5,427 nucleotides of DNA from a virus (IMGVR_UViG_2534681662_000019), one strand, 5' to 3'. Positions 1 to 5,427 are shown, counted from the first letter of the stretch. The notes: a model not told the origin generated them from the letters alone. Translations and numbers: made by a program.

Positions 1-330
1 CCGGACTGTACCAGCGAAAACGGCACCCTGTCCGAACGCCGGCGGGCTGCCGCGAATAAAATGCGTATGACCGGCAATCTGAGTCGGCGCTTTTATGAAT
101 GGCTGGCTGCGCAGTACGGTTTTACCGTCAGGCTGACGGATTCCACAGAAGGCCAGTGGGTTACGCAGGTCAATATTTACGGTATTAAAAATTATCGCAA
201 CGCAACGGTGCTGGATAATGTTCTGACGCCGTTACGTGTTTATGAATCGGGTGCGCTGGAATGTTTACTGGAGAAATATAAACCCGCGCATCAGATTTAT
301 AAATTTGTTTACCATGACGGAGATAACTAA
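1..330 (+). CDS. 3'-terminal part of a phage tail/baseplate protein gene (Mu gene-48-like); 5' end lies upstream of the window
   Basis: Frame 1 is open from base 1 with no stop before the ATG at 61 listed in the ORF track, so the gene probably starts upstream. Its TAA stop (328-330) overlaps the S start codon as TAATG, a coupling typical of phage late operons. Product assignment is by position only. Confidence 0.55.
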   Translation, partial: PDCTSENGTLSERRRAAANKMRMTGNLSRRFYEWLAAQYGFTVRLTDSTEGQWVTQVNIYGIKNYRNATVLDNVLTPLRVYESGALECLLEKYKPAHQIYKFVYHDGDN

Positions 331-1865
331 TGTTTTATATTGATAACGACAGCGGCGTAACCGTCATGCCGCCCGTATCCGCCCAGCGTAGTGCTATCGT
401 TCGCTGGTTTTCAGAAGGTGACGGGAATAATGCTATCACATGGCCCGGCATGGACTGGTTTAATATTGTGCAGGCGGAGTTATTAAACACGCTGAAAGAA
501 GCCGGTATTCAACCGGATAAAACAAAATTAAACCAGCTTGCACTGTCCATTAAAGCCATTATGAGCAATAACGCGCTGCTGATAAAAAATAACCTCAGCG
601 AAATTAAAACTGCCGGGGCATCAGCACAGCGTACAGCACGTGAAAATCTGGATATCTGGGATGCCAGCCTGAACAAAAAAGGCCTCGTTCAGCTAACCAG
701 TGCCACTGACAGCCCCAGTGAAACGCTGGCAGCCACCGCAAAAGCGGTGAAAATTGCGATGGATAATGCCAATGCCCGTCTGGCAAAAGAGCGGAACGGA
801 GCAGATATTCCCAATAAACCGCTGTTTATCCAAAACCTCGGTTTGCAGGAAACAGTAAACAAGGCTGGTAACGCCGTTCAGCGTTCCGGCGATAAAATGA
901 CCGGAGAACTGAAAATTGGCACGGTGAATGCGCTGCGAATTTTCAATGATGCCTTCGGTCTTATTTTCCGTCGTTCAGAAGAGTACCTTCATTTCATCCC
1001 TACGGCTGAAGGACAAGGCGAAAACGGTGATATCGGCCCATTAAGGCCATTCGCTATAAATCTGAGAACAGGTGCTATATCTGTCAGCCACGGGGCCAAA
1101 ATTGATGGTGGGCTGGCGCTTGGTACAGATAACGCACTGGGCGGTAATTCCATTACTCTCGGAGATAACGACACTGGTATTAAACAGGGCGGCGACGGTG
1201 TCCTTTTATTCTATTCAAATGGACAACTGGCATTTGGGCTTCAACCCGCATCTGCTGATTTTTATAAGCGGGTTGCATATATTCATCAGGGAATAATTCC
1301 TGATGGAAGTGGCGCATTTGCAGACCAGTTGAATAATGCCACCGCGCCTTTTGTTCAGACGCAGTTTGCCTGGAATCCCACTCCTGGTGGTCATTACGTG
1401 CCGATAGTTAAGGGCTTGTCCATTCGCAATGGACAGGGCTATCCCGGCGCGGTCAGCTTTGGGTATTTACTGACAGAACAGTATGGATTTCCGGTTCCAT
1501 GTATTCATATGCGTGGCGATGGCGGTAATGATGCTTTATGGCAGTTTAACCCGAACGATAAATCCTTTATTTCACCGGGTGCTCTTATTGCGGGTGGCGT
1601 CCATTATAACACCGATGGAAATATATTTGGTGGGTGCTGGGGTTCAAACTTAAATGATTACCTGAATAGTTCTTTTATCAGAAATGTGCGTCTGGGAGGC
1701 AGACGTTCTGACGTATTATATCGCGGAGGACTTTGCGAACCAGGTAATGGTCATGTGACAACAGGATTGCAAATTATTGGTGAGGTTGATGGAGATGACT
1801 GGATGGTGTCACGACCACTACAAAAATACATTTCTGGTAACTGGTATAACGTTGAACAGGCATAG
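330..1865 (+). CDS. S: Tail fibre protein S: constant N-terminal part (Sc, about 330-838) fused in frame to the variable part Sv inside the invertible segment
   Basis: 511-aa ORF with ATG overlapping the upstream stop. It reads through gixL (826-851) as ...FIQNLGLQETVNKAGNAV... It shares a Gly-rich block (ALGGNSITLGDNDTGIKQGGDGVL) and a C-terminal block (GLQIIGEVDGDD...WYNVEQA) with the minus-strand S'v cassette. Followed 15 nt later by a tail-fibre assembly gene. Confidence 0.9.
   Translation: MFYIDNDSGVTVMPPVSAQRSAIVRWFSEGDGNNAITWPGMDWFNIVQAELLNTLKEAGIQPDKTKLNQLALSIKAIMSNNALLIKNNLSEIKTAGASAQRTARENLDIWDASLNKKGLVQLTSATDSPSETLAATAKAVKIAMDNANARLAKERNGADIPNKPLFIQNLGLQETVNKAGNAVQRSGDKMTGELKIGTVNALRIFNDAFGLIFRRSEEYLHFIPTAEGQGENGDIGPLRPFAINLRTGAISVSHGAKIDGGLALGTDNALGGNSITLGDNDTGIKQGGDGVLLFYSNGQLAFGLQPASADFYKRVAYIHQGIIPDGSGAFADQLNNATAPFVQTQFAWNPTPGGHYVPIVKGLSIRNGQGYPGAVSFGYLLTEQYGFPVPCIHMRGDGGNDALWQFNPNDKSFISPGALIAGGVHYNTDGNIFGGCWGSNLNDYLNSSFIRNVRLGGRRSDVLYRGGLCEPGNGHVTTGLQIIGEVDGDDWMVSRPLQKYISGNWYNVEQA
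826..851. other. gixL: gixL recombination site for Gin invertase (TTATCCAAAACC-TC-GGTTTGCAGGAA)
   Basis: 26-bp site with two 12-bp half-sites around a central TC dinucleotide (838-839). It matches the gix/hix half-site pattern as I recall it and is present in inverted orientation at 3837-3862. It lies inside the S coding sequence, as expected for the Sc/Sv junction. Confidence 0.85.
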
Positions 1866-1880
1866 CCATCAGGAGAATAT

Positions 1881-2408
1881 ATGCAACATCTGAAAAATAT
1901 TACCGCCGGAAACCCCAAAACCATTGAGCAGTATCAGCTTACGAAAAAAGCTGGCGTTATCTGGCTATATACAGAAGACGGTAAAAACTGGTATGACGAA
2001 TTAAAAAACTTTCAGGATGATACTTTAAAAATAGCTTATGACCAGAAGGGGATTATTCGTTGTATTGAGAAAGACGTATCAATGCTTAACCCTGACGGGT
2101 TAAGTGTTGTTGAGTTACCGAATATAACAGCCAACCGTCGCGCCGATATCTCGGGAAACTGGAAGTTTCTGGATGGTAAAGTAGTAAAGCGGGAATATAC
2201 AAAACAGGAACTGCAACAGCAGGCAGAGTTACAAAAAGCCGCTTTGCTTTCCGAAGCGGAGTCTGTGATTCAACCGCTGGAACGTGCTGTCAGACTGAAT
2301 ATGGCAACTGATGAGGAACGCACACGACTGGAATCATGGGAACGCTACAGCGTTATGGTCAGCCGTGTGGATACTGCAAAGCCTGAATGGCCACAGAAAC
2401 CAGAATAA
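1881..2408 (+). CDS. U: Tail fibre assembly protein U (chaperone for S)
   Basis: 175-aa ORF with AGGAG (1871-1875) 5 nt upstream of the ATG. Clear paralogue of the minus-strand 177-aa ORF (both start MQHLKNI..GNPKT.EQYQLTK...[12 protein letters not shown] and share ITANRRAD). Position directly after the fibre gene. Confidence 0.9.
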
Positions 2409-2417
2409 CAACAAATT

Positions 2418-2440
2418 AAGGCCCGTACGGGCCTTTTCTT
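2418..2440. terminator. Bidirectional rho-independent terminator between the convergent U and U' genes
   Basis: Hairpin aaGGCCC-gtac-GGGCCtt (2418-2435) followed by TTTTCTT on the + strand and preceded by an A/T-rich run (TTAATTTGTTGTT on the - strand). It sits in the 30-bp gap between the U stop (2406-2408) and the U' stop (2439-2441). Confidence 0.6.
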
Positions 2441-2972
2441 ATTCTGGTGGTTCCGGGAATGTTACAGGAAGAACCGAGGTATCAGTTGTCTCAACCTGTT
2501 GCACGTATCGCATCCAGTTCATCAGTTGCTGTCTGTCTGAATCAGTGATAATCCCCAAAGTAAGCTGTGTTTGCCAGAACTGCGTTTTTTCTCTGGCCTG
2601 CTGTAATAATATTTTTTTCTGGTTTTCCGTCTGTAGGCGCAACTCTTCTTCGGTATATACACGTTTAATGACTGCGCCATCTTTAAACATCCATTTACCT
2701 GAGTCGTCAGCACGCCGGTTGGCGGTAATATCAGGAATCTCAACGACGCTATAACCTTCAGGGTTAAGTGTGGAGGCATCTTTGGTTATGGCAACAATAA
2801 TATTATTTTCGTCGTAAACAATCTTTATGGTGTCTTCCTGAAAGTTATTTACTTCCTCATACCAGTTTTTACCGTCTTCTGTATATAACCAGATAACATC
2901 AAAATTCTTTGTTAGCTGATATTGCTCTTTTGTTTTTGGATTTCCTGACTTAATATTTTTTAAATGCTGCAT
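2439..2972 (-). CDS. U': Tail fibre assembly protein U' (chaperone for the alternative fibre S')
   Basis: 177-aa ORF on the minus strand, paralogous to U. Its ATG (2970-2972) lies 1 nt after the S'v stop codon (TAA, complement of 2976-2978), with AGGTG just upstream on the minus strand. Confidence 0.9.
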
Positions 2973-2975
2973 AAT

Positions 2976-3848
2976 TTACACCTGTGCGACGTTATACCAT
3001 GTGCCATTGATGTATTTTTGTATTGGTCTGAAGATGGCTTCATCATCGCCATCTACTTCACCAATGATTCTTAATCCGGTAATTGCGTGTCCGGCTTTTT
3101 CATAACGACCACCACGCGCCATCAATTGAACAACACGCGTACCCAGGCGAACATCTTTCACATAGCGGGAATCAAAATTCCCCCAGTTGCTGGGTTGTAT
3201 CTGACCGTTAACAGCAAATATTACTGAGTTATCTGTATTTCGCTGACTATAGAAATGCCAGCCAGAATCATCGCCAAGCTCTGCAACAGTTGGCCTTGAC
3301 GAAGCGCCCCATAAATTAAACCCTACGTTCTTCGTGGAGTTGTTGGAGCTGGATAGCGTGAATTTTTTACCATCCCCGGCCTGAATATTTTTAAAAGCAA
3401 TAGCCACTCCATTCTGAAAGCGGAATACACGCTGACTATTAGCATAAACATCCAGAATACCGTCTCCATTCTGTTTAAATCCGGTGTCATTATCACCAAG
3501 AACAATAGAGCTACCACCTAACGCATTCGTCGTACCAACTCCAAGACTGCCATTAATGACGGCATTTACCAGAATATTTAGTGCATCCCATTTCAGCGTC
3601 ATCAGGTCTTTTGTTGTGGTGCTCTGGCGGCTTCTCCATTTGAAATATTCATTGCCGTTGTCGCCTGTTTCAAACCACATGTATGAATCAGTGTCACCAT
3701 CGGCATCATTTTTAAATCCAATCTTCGCCCAGTCAGTATTTCGAATCCAGGCAAGGATTGAGTCATTTTCAAAAGTAAGCCCACCGGACAAGGTATCGCC
3801 ATTTTTTTGCACGGCGTTACCAGCCTTGTTTACCGTTTCCTGCAAACC
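2976..3848 (-). CDS. S': S'v: promoterless, startless variable C-terminal cassette of the alternative tail fibre, expressed only after G inversion as an Sc-S'v fusion
   Basis: Minus-strand open frame homologous to Sv at both ends (QETVNKAGNAVQ... and ...GLRIIGEVDGDD...WYNVAQV). It has no ATG or RBS of its own; the ORF track's M at 3845 is a TTG that is the Leu codon of the shared ...NLGLQETV... junction. The frame is closed one codon outside the crossover by a TAA (complement of 3855-3857) within gixR. Confidence 0.85.
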   Translation of the reverse strand, partial: GLQETVNKAGNAVQKNGDTLSGGLTFENDSILAWIRNTDWAKIGFKNDADGDTDSYMWFETGDNGNEYFKWRSRQSTTTKDLMTLKWDALNILVNAVINGSLGVGTTNALGGSSIVLGDNDTGFKQNGDGILDVYANSQRVFRFQNGVAIAFKNIQAGDGKKFTLSSSNNSTKNVGFNLWGASSRPTVAELGDDSGWHFYSQRNTDNSVIFAVNGQIQPSNWGNFDSRYVKDVRLGTRVVQLMARGGRYEKAGHAITGLRIIGEVDGDDEAIFRPIQKYINGTWYNVAQV

Positions 3849-3870
3849 GAGGTTTTAGATAATGGCTGTT
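3835..3870 (+). promoter_or_regulatory. Candidate gin promoter overlapping gixR (-10-like GATAAT at 3858-3863)
   Basis: GATAAT hexamer inside the outer gixR half-site, about 55 nt upstream of the gin start; the -35 is weak. In the Gin/Hin/Cin family the invertase promoter is reported to overlap the adjacent recombination site. The exact hexamers here are my inference. Confidence 0.3.
3837..3862. other. gixR: gixR recombination site (TTCCTGCAAACC-GA-GGTTTTAGATAA), inverted relative to gixL
   Basis: Its reverse complement is TTATCTAAAACC-TC-GGTTTGCAGGAA, identical to gixL except for one base (C in gixL, T in gixR). Central dinucleotide at 3849-3850. Located between the S'v cassette and gin. 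Confidence 0.85.
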
Positions 3871-3916
3871 TCCGGCCTGCATGGCATGATTTGCGCTTTT
3901 AAACGGGAGATCCAGA

Positions 3917-4510
3917 GTGCTGATTGGCTATGTAAGGGTATCAACAAATGACCAGAATACAGACCTGCAACGAAACGCTCTTGTTTGTGCAGGATGTGAA
4001 CAAATATTTGAAGATAAATTAAGCGGAACAAGGACAGACAGACCTGGATTAAAGCGCGCTTTAAAGCGTCTTCAAAAAGGTGACACACTGGTTGTCTGGA
4101 AACTGGATCGCCTCGGGCGAAGCATGAAACATCTGATTTCTCTCGTCGGAGAACTACGGGAGCGAGGGATTAATTTTCGCAGCCTTACTGACAGTATTGA
4201 TACGTCATCCCCAATGGGGCGTTTTTTCTTCCACGTTATGGGTGCCCTAGCTGAAATGGAACGAGAACTAATCATCGAGCGAACGATGGCAGGACTTGCT
4301 GCCGCCAGAAATAAAGGCCGTATTGGTGGGCGACCACCTAAACTAACCAAAGCGGAATGGGAGCAGGCCGGGCGTTTATTAGCACAAGGAATCCCCCGCA
4401 AGCAGGTTGCATTGATCTACGATGTGGCCCTGTCAACTCTGTATAAAAAACACCCCGCGAAACGAACGCACATAGAAAACGACGATCGAATCAATCAAAT
4501 CGATCGGTAA
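3917..4510 (+). CDS. gin: Site-specific DNA invertase Gin (serine recombinase, resolvase/invertase family)
   Basis: ORF starting at GTG 3917 with GGGAG (3905-3909) upstream. N-terminus MLIGYVRVSTNDQ has the catalytic Ser at position 9. The catalytic domain and C-terminal helix-turn-helix (GGRPPKLTKAEWEQA...) are characteristic of Gin/Pin/Hin/Cin. Located directly beside gixR. Confidence 0.95.
   Translation: MLIGYVRVSTNDQNTDLQRNALVCAGCEQIFEDKLSGTRTDRPGLKRALKRLQKGDTLVVWKLDRLGRSMKHLISLVGELRERGINFRSLTDSIDTSSPMGRFFFHVMGALAEMERELIIERTMAGLAAARNKGRIGGRPPKLTKAEWEQAGRLLAQGIPRKQVALIYDVALSTLYKKHPAKRTHIENDDRINQIDR
3960..4075. promoter_or_regulatory. Candidate Fis-dependent recombinational enhancer (sis) within the 5' part of gin
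   Basis: In Mu the enhancer lies inside the start of the gin coding sequence. Here there are Fis-like 15-mers of the G-N13-C type with A/T-rich cores, for example GAAGATAAATTAAGC (4010-4024) and GCGCTTTAAAGCGTC (4056-4070), plus a weaker one at 3962-3976 whose centre is 48 bp from the first. The Fis motif is degenerate, so this placement is tentative. Confidence 0.25.
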
Positions 4511-4518
4511 TACAGATC
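4484..4518. promoter_or_regulatory. Cluster of three GATC (Dam) sites upstream of the mom promoter: the methylation-sensitive OxyR (MomR) operator
   Basis: GATC at 4484-4487, 4502-4505 and 4515-4518, each within a GATCGA/CGATCG context, just upstream of the -35 region. In Mu, OxyR binds this region when it is unmethylated and represses mom. The sites lie inside the last codons of gin. Confidence 0.65.
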
Positions 4519-4520
4519 GA

Positions 4521-4572
4521 TTATGTCTCAATAACCACACTCAACCCATGATGTTTTTTAAGATAGTGGCGA
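4521..4572 (+). promoter_or_regulatory. mom operon promoter (Pmom): C-activator dyad, weak -35, 19-bp spacer with T6 run, -10 TAAGAT
   Basis: TTAT-N6-ATAA dyad (4521-4534); -35-like ACCACA (4534-4539); 19-bp spacer; TTTTTT (4554-4559) abutting the -10 TAAGAT (4559-4564). This is about 30 nt upstream of the com RBS and matches what I recall of the activator-dependent Mu mom promoter. Confidence 0.55.
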
Positions 4573-4592
4573 ATTGATGCAAAGGAGGTGAG

Positions 4593-4781
4593 ATGAAATC
4601 AATTCGCTGTAAAAACTGCAACAAACTGTTATTTAAGGCGGATTCCTTTGATCACATTGAAATCAGGTGTCCGCGTTGCAAACGTCACATCATAATGCTG
4701 AATGCCTGCGAGCATCCCACGGAGAAACATTGTGGGAAAAGAGAAAAAATCACGCATTCTGACGAAACCGTGCGTTATTGA
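4593..4781 (+). CDS. com: Com, zinc-finger translational activator of mom
   Basis: 62-aa ORF with strong RBS AGGAGG (4583-4588). Cys-X2-Cys...Cys-X2-Cys motif (C6, C9, C26, C29). Its 3' end overlaps the mom start by about 50 nt, as in the Mu com-mom operon. Confidence 0.9.
4715..4737 (+). promoter_or_regulatory. mRNA hairpin (translation-inhibition structure) sequestering the mom start codon
   Basis: UCCCAC (4715-4720) pairs with GUGGGA (4732-4737). The 11-nt loop GGAGAAACAUU contains the mom Shine-Dalgarno GGAG, and the GUG start (4732-4734) is inside the 3' arm of the stem. Consistent with Com-dependent translational activation. Confidence 0.55.
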
Positions 4782-5427
4782 GTATGAAGGCCAGATTGTT
4801 GGCTATGGTTCAAAGGAGCTGCGCGTTGAAACCATATCCTGCTGGCTGGCCCGCACAATTATTCAGGCAAAGCACTATTCCCGCCGTTTTGTGAATAACT
4901 CTTACCTCCACCTGGGAGTATTCAGCGGACGCGATCTGGTTGGCGTTCTCCAGTGGGGATATGCCCTTAACCCCAACTCAGGTCGTCGTGTCGTGCTTGA
5001 AACGGATAACCGGGGCTATATGGAGTTGAACCGCATGTGGCTACACGACGACATGCCCCGCAACTCTGAATCACGGGCCATCAGTTATGCACTGAAAACC
5101 ATAAGGTTACTGTATCCGTCAGTGGAGTGGGTTCAGTCTTTTGCAGACGAACGCTGCGGACGTGCTGGCGTTGTGTATCAGGCGTCAAATTTTGATTTTA
5201 TTGGCAGCCATGAAAGCACGTTCTACGAGCTGGATGGTGAGTGGTATCACGAGATAACGATGAACGCGATTAAACGCGGTGGACAACGAGGCGTGTATTT
5301 ACGGGCTAATAAAGAGCGTGCCGTGGTGCACAAATTTAATCAGTATCGCTACATCAGGTTCCTGAACAAGCGAGCAAGGAAGCGACTAAATACCAAGCTA
5401 TTCAAGGTTCAGCCATACCCTAAGTGA
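4732..5427 (+). CDS. mom: Mom, DNA adenine-modification protein (anti-restriction)
   Basis: Long ORF ending at the window edge. GTG 4732 has GGAG 7 nt upstream and gives 231 aa, the length I recall for Mu Mom. The in-frame ATG at 4702 (241 aa) used by the ORF track has no RBS. Overlaps com in a different frame. Confidence 0.85.

Follow-up and report, generated by a model that had tools for sequence, protein, structure and literature searches.

The Din family of site-specific inversion systems combines a small serine invertase, two 26-bp inverted sites and a mechanism that depends on Fis and an enhancer (PMC3798978). We analyzed a 5,427-nt stretch of viral DNA (IMGVR_UViG_2534681662_000019; the whole stretch is hereafter called the window), which very probably carries a system of this kind, namely, the complete G inversion segment of a transposable, Mu-like phage or prophage; of its two tail-fiber modules, the left-hand one is in the position for expression. 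The finding is real, the switch is intact and ordinary, and the system is already known: it is the classical host-range switch of phage Mu, formed by the G segment and the invertase Gin, in which inversion exchanges the receptor-binding end of the tail fiber and thereby the range of bacteria open to infection. Its discovery value is small, since inversion of the G segment by Gin is textbook knowledge. An initial annotation of the same DNA had described a working two-state switch, and this description is borne out by two gix crossover sites, an intact gin gene and a near-identical prophage that occurs in both orientations.

The locus has the gene order and position of the Mu G segment. As in Mu, a baseplate-wedge gene, the constant part of the fiber gene (Sc), the left crossover site (gixL), a first variable fiber part (Sv), its chaperone gene U, a hairpin, a second chaperone gene (U'), a second variable fiber part (S'v), the right crossover site (gixR), gin, com, and mom follow one another. 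Sc and the flank from gin to mom are 96 to 98% identical to Mu at the nucleotide level, the 26-bp gix sites have the same central TC, and the crossover falls at the same codon of the fiber gene. However, the repeat arms are 55 nt long in the window and 34 nt long in Mu, and the window has another cargo, a G instead of an A in the inner half of gix, a C-to-T change in gixR that comes with a TAA codon, and a Gin that is 4 amino acids (aa) longer.

Megablast aligned Mu to only 46% of the window. The top full-length matches were Yersinia phage vB_YpM_3 (98.7%) and a few Escherichia coli prophages (98.5 to 98.8%). Together, the Muvirus phages vB_YpM_3 and vB_YpM_23 (Microbiol Spectr 2023, PMC10434027) and the prophages of Esc30, Esc31, BLSE177-2012, and N1286 are 98.5 to 98.8% identical to the window over its whole length. 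They have the same cassette pair, gix variants, and Gin, and vB_YpM_3 is also in the orientation of the window; they differ from it by about 70 scattered substitutions, and Esc31 is flipped. The cassette pair is already in GenBank, in the published vB_YpM_3 and vB_YpM_23 and in several E. coli prophages.

Other systems are more distant. The C segment of P1/P7 (Cin), the P segment of e14 (Pin), and the H segment of Salmonella (Hin), which we compared by description, lie in different flanking genomes. P1 and e14 also switch tail-fiber C termini. Hin, unlike the system in the window, flips a promoter instead of fusing coding sequences, and hin is located inside the segment. Shufflons (Min of p15B, Rci of R64) similarly diversify the C terminus of an adhesin or fiber by site-specific inversion, but their crossover sites number more than two, which gives them many states, and Rci belongs to the tyrosine recombinases, whereas the window has two sites and two states. 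Finally, phage P2 has an H tip resembling S'v and a gpG resembling the N-terminal domain of U', with homology starting at gix. However, its single fiber gene is not invertible and has another N-terminal part of about 380 aa, P2 has no invertase, and the C-terminal domain of U' is not P2-like.

Two fiber frames joined at gix

The features of the window are as follows.

330 to 839, plus strand: Sc, the constant N-terminal 170 codons of the fiber gene, outside the invertible segment and common to both fiber forms
826 to 851, plus strand: gixL, 26-bp crossover site (TTATCCAAAACC-TC-GGTTTGCAGGAA), with the central TC at 838-839 and a repeat arm that reaches 880
840 to 1865, plus strand: Sv, the variable C-terminal fiber part (341 aa), now in frame with Sc; the receptor-binding module that is expressed in this orientation
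1881 to 2408, plus strand: U, tail-fiber assembly chaperone for Sv (175 aa), with a ribosome-binding site (RBS) AGGAG at 1869-1873
2418 to 2435, no strand: GC-rich palindromic hairpin between the convergent modules, terminator-like on both strands
2439 to 2972, minus strand: U', tail-fiber assembly chaperone for S'v (177 aa), a Caudo_TAP protein and domain mosaic
2976 to 3848, minus strand: S'v, the silent variable fiber part (290 codons plus stop), which joins Sc after inversion
3837 to 3862, minus strand: gixR (TTATCTAAAACC-TC-GGTTTGCAGGAA on the minus strand), with a repeat arm that reaches inward to 3808
3917 to 4510, plus strand: gin, serine DNA invertase (197 aa), with a GTG start and an RBS GGGAG at about 3905-3909
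3917 to 4039, no strand: 5' part of gin, candidate location of the sis enhancer, base for base the same as in Mu
4593 to 4781 (com) and up to 5427 (mom), plus strand: Zn_ribbon_Com and Mom matches in Pfam; the right-end DNA-modification operon of Mu, not part of the switch

As claimed in the initial annotation, the S frame is continuous across gixL: the Sc-Sv open reading frame (ORF) runs from 330 to 1865 and encodes 511 aa without a break. It has an RBS (GGAG, 319-322), and its ATG overlaps the stop codon of the upstream baseplate-wedge gene. Identity to Mu amounts to 98.3% at the nucleotide level over positions 1-880, a region that includes Sc, and to 96.5% over 3822-5427. Sc encodes a Phage_fiber_2 repeat (aa 113-153; Pfam), and aa 1-196 of the fiber match the N terminus of Mu S (PDB 5yvq/8ju3), which docks on the baseplate wedge protein gp48 (PMC11915804).

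We then inverted 840-3848 in silico. An Sc-S'v fusion of about 460 aa had been predicted, and a continuous ORF of exactly 460 aa was obtained, the first 184 aa of which are common to the 511-aa form. The lack of an in-frame fusion, which the initial annotation had named as a refuting outcome, was thus not seen. Moving the breakpoint anywhere between 838/3850 and 852/3836 did not alter the result. The fiber gene contains the crossover, and each orientation places a different variable end in frame with the same constant head. The two modules are convergent, each consisting of a fiber part followed by its own Caudo_TAP chaperone on opposite strands. U, U', and S'v are open and contain no internal stops, in agreement with the earlier statement that the modules are free of frameshifts and internal stops.

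The crossover sites are part of inverted-repeat arms of 55 nt (826-880 and 3808-3862) that are 95% complementary, with 3 mismatches. The 26-bp core TTATCCAAAACCTCGGTTTGCAGGAA was found exactly twice, at 826-851 on the plus strand and, with 1 mismatch, at 3837-3862 on the minus strand, compared to 0 occurrences in 200 shuffles. Each gix consists of two 12-bp half-sites of imperfect symmetry around a central TC, which is the same in both sites. The single mismatch between gixL and gixR is located in the outer half-site (831/3857; C to T in gixR), whereas the two gix sites of Mu are identical (TTATCCAAAACCTCGGTTTACAGGAA). The inner half-sites read GGTTTG in both sites of the window and GGTTTA in Mu, and this A-to-G change is the one base by which gixL differs from Mu gix. 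The T at 3857 in gixR generates an in-frame TAA (3857-3855, minus strand) three codons before a TTG at 3845. This stop is not present in Mu, and the gixR variant is also found in Esc30, Esc31, and vB_YpM_3. Because the outer half-site remains static on inversion, the TAA always precedes whichever fiber fragment is silent.

No further gix site was found in the window at up to 3 mismatches. Having only two gix sites, the locus represents a two-state switch and not a multisite shufflon. A third crossover site, and thus a multistate shufflon, was rejected, since only two sites were found at this threshold; a AAACCNNGGTTT-like match at 2471-2482 is at chance level, and its 26-bp context fits gix at only 13 of 26 positions. 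At 2461-2485, in the 3' end of U', the gix half-site-like fragments TTACAGGAA and then AACCGAGGT occur in direct orientation relative to gixR, with a 13/26 match to the full gix; they are probably a coincidence in coding sequence.

Natural inversion and the role of Gin

The complete assemblies of E. coli Esc30 and Esc31 contain a prophage that is 98.8% identical to the window, in the same host gene (ldtD) and in opposite orientations. Esc30 has the orientation of the window and a 1,536-nt fiber coding sequence (CDS). In Esc31, exactly 826-3862 is reversed, and a 1,383-nt (460-aa) fiber CDS is annotated. All the elements of the inversion switch that had been placed between 826 and 3862 were found, and these two positions are the exact BLAST breakpoints in this naturally flipped relative. 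Furthermore, the window inverted in silico was collinear with Esc31 over 5,423 nt (98.7%, no gaps), and Esc30 flipped at the equivalent of 840-3848 was the same as Esc31, with 0 mismatches over 7,361 nt, compared to 2,115 mismatches when left unflipped. The flip between Esc30 and Esc31 is reciprocal and conservative, which is what a serine invertase would be expected to produce, and the pair is a natural demonstration of conservative inversion for this gix variant. A second, independent flipped case, in which Sv adjoins gin, is an IMG/VR contig, the one locus obtained in an orientation scan of viral contigs. Scanning one-genome-per-species contigs with a 50-nt degenerate junction pattern and with a 28-nt gix variant gave no match with either of the two.

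The polymorphisms in the repeat arms locate the exchange between Esc30 and Esc31. The outer one (831/3857) stays with the flank, and the inner one (854/3834) moves with the segment, which places the exchange within 22 nt (832-853) containing the central TC at 838-839. One could argue that the relatives were flipped by homologous recombination between the 55-bp repeats, catalyzed by RecA of the host, and that gix and gin are relics. Indeed, the arm polymorphisms bracket the exchange only to 22 of the 55 nt of homology, which is also compatible with homologous exchange. We nevertheless consider this explanation scarcely credible. Repeats of 55 bp with mismatches are a very poor substrate for RecA, gin is intact and its product is 99.5% identical to the biochemically characterized Mu Gin, and the gix cores retain both half-sites and the central TC, with the gix center lying in the exchange interval. 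Inversion by Gin is the explanation that we favor. Gin, U, U', and both gix cores of the window are identical to those of Esc30 and Esc31, and the machinery of the window is thus the machinery that demonstrably flipped.

The gin product matches Resolvase (E = 7e-50) and HTH_7 (E = 2.4e-17) in Pfam, and its N terminus, MLIGYVRVS, includes Ser9, the catalytic residue of Gin (PMC3575834). It is identical to Mu Gin at 192 of 193 aa and has in addition the 4-aa C-terminal extension QIDR (window 4498-4510; 197 versus 193 aa). The Esc30 Gin has the same extended form and is identical over all 197 aa. In vB_YpM_3, the CDS annotated as hin is longer (618 nt) and has a different stop position.

In Mu, the Fis-dependent recombinational enhancer (sis) is located inside the invertase gene, according to the title of the study by Kahmann et al. 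1985 (via PMC10434027). The 5' part of gin is the candidate location of sis in the window: nucleotides 1-123 of the gene (3917-4039) have the Mu sequence without change, and the stretch that follows, 4040-4069, differs from it by 4 substitutions. A scan of this region with a degenerate Fis motif gave several pairs 48 bp apart, but it was nondiscriminating, with about 26 motif matches per kb throughout the window.

Of the complete E. coli genomes with a query coverage of 80% or more, five share the orientation of the window and one is flipped. The shared orientation of five of six close copies would also be compatible with a switch that is structurally intact but impaired or frozen in inversion, locked on Sv-U, owing either to the asymmetry of gixR or to the gin substitutions in 4040-4069, by which the binding of Gin or the function of the enhancer would be reduced. 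The mismatch at 831/3857, where the sites of Mu are identical, and 5 synonymous differences from Esc30 in 4040-4069 could be cited in its favor, as could the analogous argument made for SfMu, for which a 1-bp difference between the sites was suggested as a reason why inversion might be impaired (PMC4406740). However, the SfMu change adjoins the crossover dinucleotide, whereas the change in gixR is 7 nt away and is also present in the flipped pair: Esc30 and Esc31, with the same gixL/gixR pair and an identical Gin, occur in both orientations. Moreover, the rate of inversion cannot be read from a 5:1 ratio in so few assemblies. The half-site position at which gixR is mismatched varies among gix, hix, and cix sites, which also speaks against impairment. 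Taken together, we regard a frozen switch as very unlikely and retain a switch that inverts.

Such a switch would operate as follows. By analogy with Mu, late transcription would enter from the left through Sc (330-839), cross gixL into whichever variable part is attached, and continue into its chaperone. In the window, the transcript would cover Sv and U and give a 511-aa fiber whose Sc N terminus would dock on the baseplate wedge. S'v and U' lie antisense, with no promoter or RBS of their own, closed by the TAA of gixR and set apart by the terminator-like hairpin. Dimers of Gin, which is encoded just outside the segment, would bind the two gix sites and form a synapse with the Fis-bound enhancer in the 5' part of gin on supercoiled DNA. 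Dependence on Fis and on negative supercoiling, a phosphoserine intermediate, and subunit rotation are known for Mu Gin and Hin (PMC3575834, PMC3798978). By extension from this family, Ser9 would make staggered double-strand cuts at the central TC, one pair of subunits would rotate by 180 degrees, and the ends would be religated. The resulting flip of 840-3848 would place S'v in the frame of Sc (460 aa), followed by U'. With two differing tips, a population of lysogens would be predicted to yield two virion types with different receptor specificities, and the two orientations would, as in Mu, be expected to confer different host ranges.

Several points weigh against the interpretation of the window as a complete, working G segment. 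The gix sites differ by one base, those of Mu being identical; the enhancer has only a candidate location, and 4 substitutions relative to Mu lie in 4040-4069; and the receptor specificity of both tips is predicted only. A scan for consensus sigma-70-like promoters, which is uninformative for the late C-dependent promoters of Mu, found none upstream of gin or of the silent S'v and nothing promoter-like on the coding strand of S'v, and the count of sigma-70-like sites in the window was below the shuffled expectation. Lastly, the window is a single sequence whose own inversion was not observed; in the genomes compared, both orientations and a conservative exchange at the center of the site belong to its near-identical relatives.

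Fiber tips and chaperones of the cassette pair

The alignments identify the cargo of the segment as a cassette pair different from the S/S' pair of Mu, with one P2-H-like member and one member of the vB_YpM_3 type; this had been missed in the initial annotation. S'v is 95.2% identical to aa 380-669 of P2 gpH, end to end from the crossover to the stop (290/290 aa), and P2 gene H contains a degenerate gix relic (TTATCGAATATCTCGGTTTACAGGAA; 22/26 compared to Mu gix) exactly where the homology to S'v begins. The relation of P2 H to these fibers has reportedly been recognized since the early 1990s, and the receptor-binding domain of P2 gpH targets the lipopolysaccharide core of E. coli. Horizontal transfer has been noted (PMC9594776). 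S'v is related to the S protein of Mu G(+) only in its first approximately 133 aa (72%; PDB 5yvq match) and sits in the opposite slot. Sv is 98.8% identical over its full length to the fibers of vB_YpM_3 and vB_YpM_23 and 76% identical to that of vB_YpM_Tongde. It is in part 60 to 75% identical to some P2-like phages, and only 32 to 40%, over short stretches, to either Mu tip. Sv and S'v share 32.6% identity.

Similarly, both chaperones have close counterparts. U matches Caudo_TAP with an E value of 7.8e-35 (profile positions 3-131 of 131), and its identity amounts to 77% with Mu U and 100% with the copy in Esc30; U' matches the same family with an E value of 1.8e-31 and is 100% identical to the Esc30 and vB_YpM_3 copies. 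With both fiber parts aligned over their full length and both chaperones covering nearly the whole profile, the claim that each fiber-plus-chaperone module is complete was upheld.

Both chaperones are mosaics of domains. In U', the N-terminal domain (aa 1-103) has 93% identity with Mu U and 91% with P2 G. The C-terminal domain (aa 104-177) most resembles Mu U' (63.5%), compared to about 35% for either Mu U or P2 G; in U, the C-terminal domain (aa 104-175) has 89% identity with Mu U. In TfaMu, binding to the fiber is the role of the N-terminal domain, and the C-terminal helical domain serves only for trimerization (PMC9608196). These domain roles imply that the exchanged unit would be the fiber tip together with the fiber-binding N-terminal domain of the chaperone, the C-terminal domains staying with their slot. 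On this reading, the chimeric U' would be properly matched to its P2-H-like partner S'v.

The same mosaic could also mean that the DNA switch works while only one of the two modules is biologically useful, for instance, because U' fails to fold S'v or because one of the tips finds no host receptor; the host range would then not truly alternate. In U', the 74 C-terminal aa have only about 35% identity to P2 G or Mu U, and lysates of SfMu obtained by induction and by infection had the same host range (PMC4406740). However, the N-terminal domain of U', at 91 to 93% identity to P2 G and Mu U, fits a P2-H-like partner, and it is this domain that binds the fiber in TfaMu. Furthermore, both modules are without stops or frameshifts and are 98 to 100% conserved at the amino acid level across independent isolates, which argues for purifying selection on both. 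We therefore judge a single useful module to be unlikely and continue with two. Relative to the independent isolates, there are 4 to 9 aa changes per fiber and 0 to 1 per chaperone. Since no stops are present, the differences amount to 0 to 9 residues, and vB_YpM_3, which shares the orientation of the window, is viable and forms plaques on Yersinia pestis (PMC10434027), we conclude from this comparison that both modules are intact.

It is plausible, although less likely than not, that the switch toggles the phage between hosts of different genera, with receptors of the E. coli type and of the Yersinia type, and that a portable cassette is bounded by gix and by the junction of the chaperone domains. 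The silent tip is the receptor-binding domain of P2 gpH. The only matches of Sv at 98.8% are in Mu-like phages that were isolated and propagated on Y. pestis and have the same orientation, which suggests that Sv could be a Yersinia-directed tip that is active at 37°C. In the alignments, the exchangeable cassette appears to begin at the gix site and to end where the two chaperone domains meet. The gix relic in P2 H marks the same junction, and gix may thus be a portable splice point by which host-range cassettes pass between inverting and noninverting phages. These cassette boundaries (gix and the chaperone domain junction) could guide host-range engineering of Mu-like and P2-like phages.

Silent fragment, hairpin, and right end

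According to the initial annotation, S'v lacks a start and can be expressed only after inversion. The first part holds insofar as S'v has no ATG and no RBS, but a mechanical start, the TTG at 3845, is present inside gixR. In the motif GLQETV, which gix encodes, this TTG is the codon for Leu. It is the sole in-frame start, lies three codons after the TAA, and is preceded on the coding strand by 15 nt (TCTAAAACCTCGGT) that contain no Shine-Dalgarno sequence, in good agreement with the second part of the claim. RefSeq (PGAP) and GenBank call the silent S'v of Esc30 and vB_YpM_3 an 870-nt, 289-aa "tail fiber protein" starting at the TTG of gixR, and a 969-nt CDS has similarly been assigned to the silent Sv of Esc31. 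We rejected S'v as an independently expressed gene because there is no Shine-Dalgarno sequence at the TTG and an in-frame TAA lies just upstream. These stand-alone S'v and Sv annotations are artifacts in which gene fragments are treated as genes. This is of use for annotation, as pipelines call the silent S'v as a stand-alone gene and overlook the Sc-S'v fusion.

The hairpin at 2418-2435 is perfectly palindromic (AAGGCCCGTACGGGCCTT), with values of -12.2 and -14.4 kcal/mol (z = -2.0 and -3.4). At the same position in Mu, between U and U', lies a hairpin that is similar except for its loop (AAGGCCCGATAGCGGGCCTT). The hairpin of the window would act as a two-way terminator and prevent antisense transcription of the silent module from the active one.

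The contents of the window correspond to the right end of a Mu-like phage, with S, U, U', S', gin, com, and mom as in the annotated Mu record. From left to right, it contains the 3' end of the baseplate-wedge gene, the fiber ORF, U, the hairpin, U', S'v, gin, a 62-aa ORF (com), and the mom ORF, the last of which overlaps the 62-aa ORF and ends on the final base of the window. Both the right-end gene order of Muvirus (baseplate wedge, S, U, U', S', gin, com, mom) and a high identity to Mu outside the G cargo were found. The genes com and mom, the DNA-modification operon of the right end, identify the element as Mu-like. An Rfam scan of the window gave no family above the threshold.

The stop codon of mom coincides with the exact end of the window. 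The mechanical mom ORF encodes 241 aa from an ATG at 4702, overlapping com, and is longer than the annotated Mu Mom (696 nt, with a start at about window position 4732). In Esc30 and Esc31, mom is followed by a 447-nt hypothetical gene. In the deposited vB_YpM_3 genome, positions 9059-11188 extend beyond the right end of Mu and reach dtd and insertion-sequence genes; these look like packaged host DNA rather than phage genes, as expected from the headful packaging of Mu.

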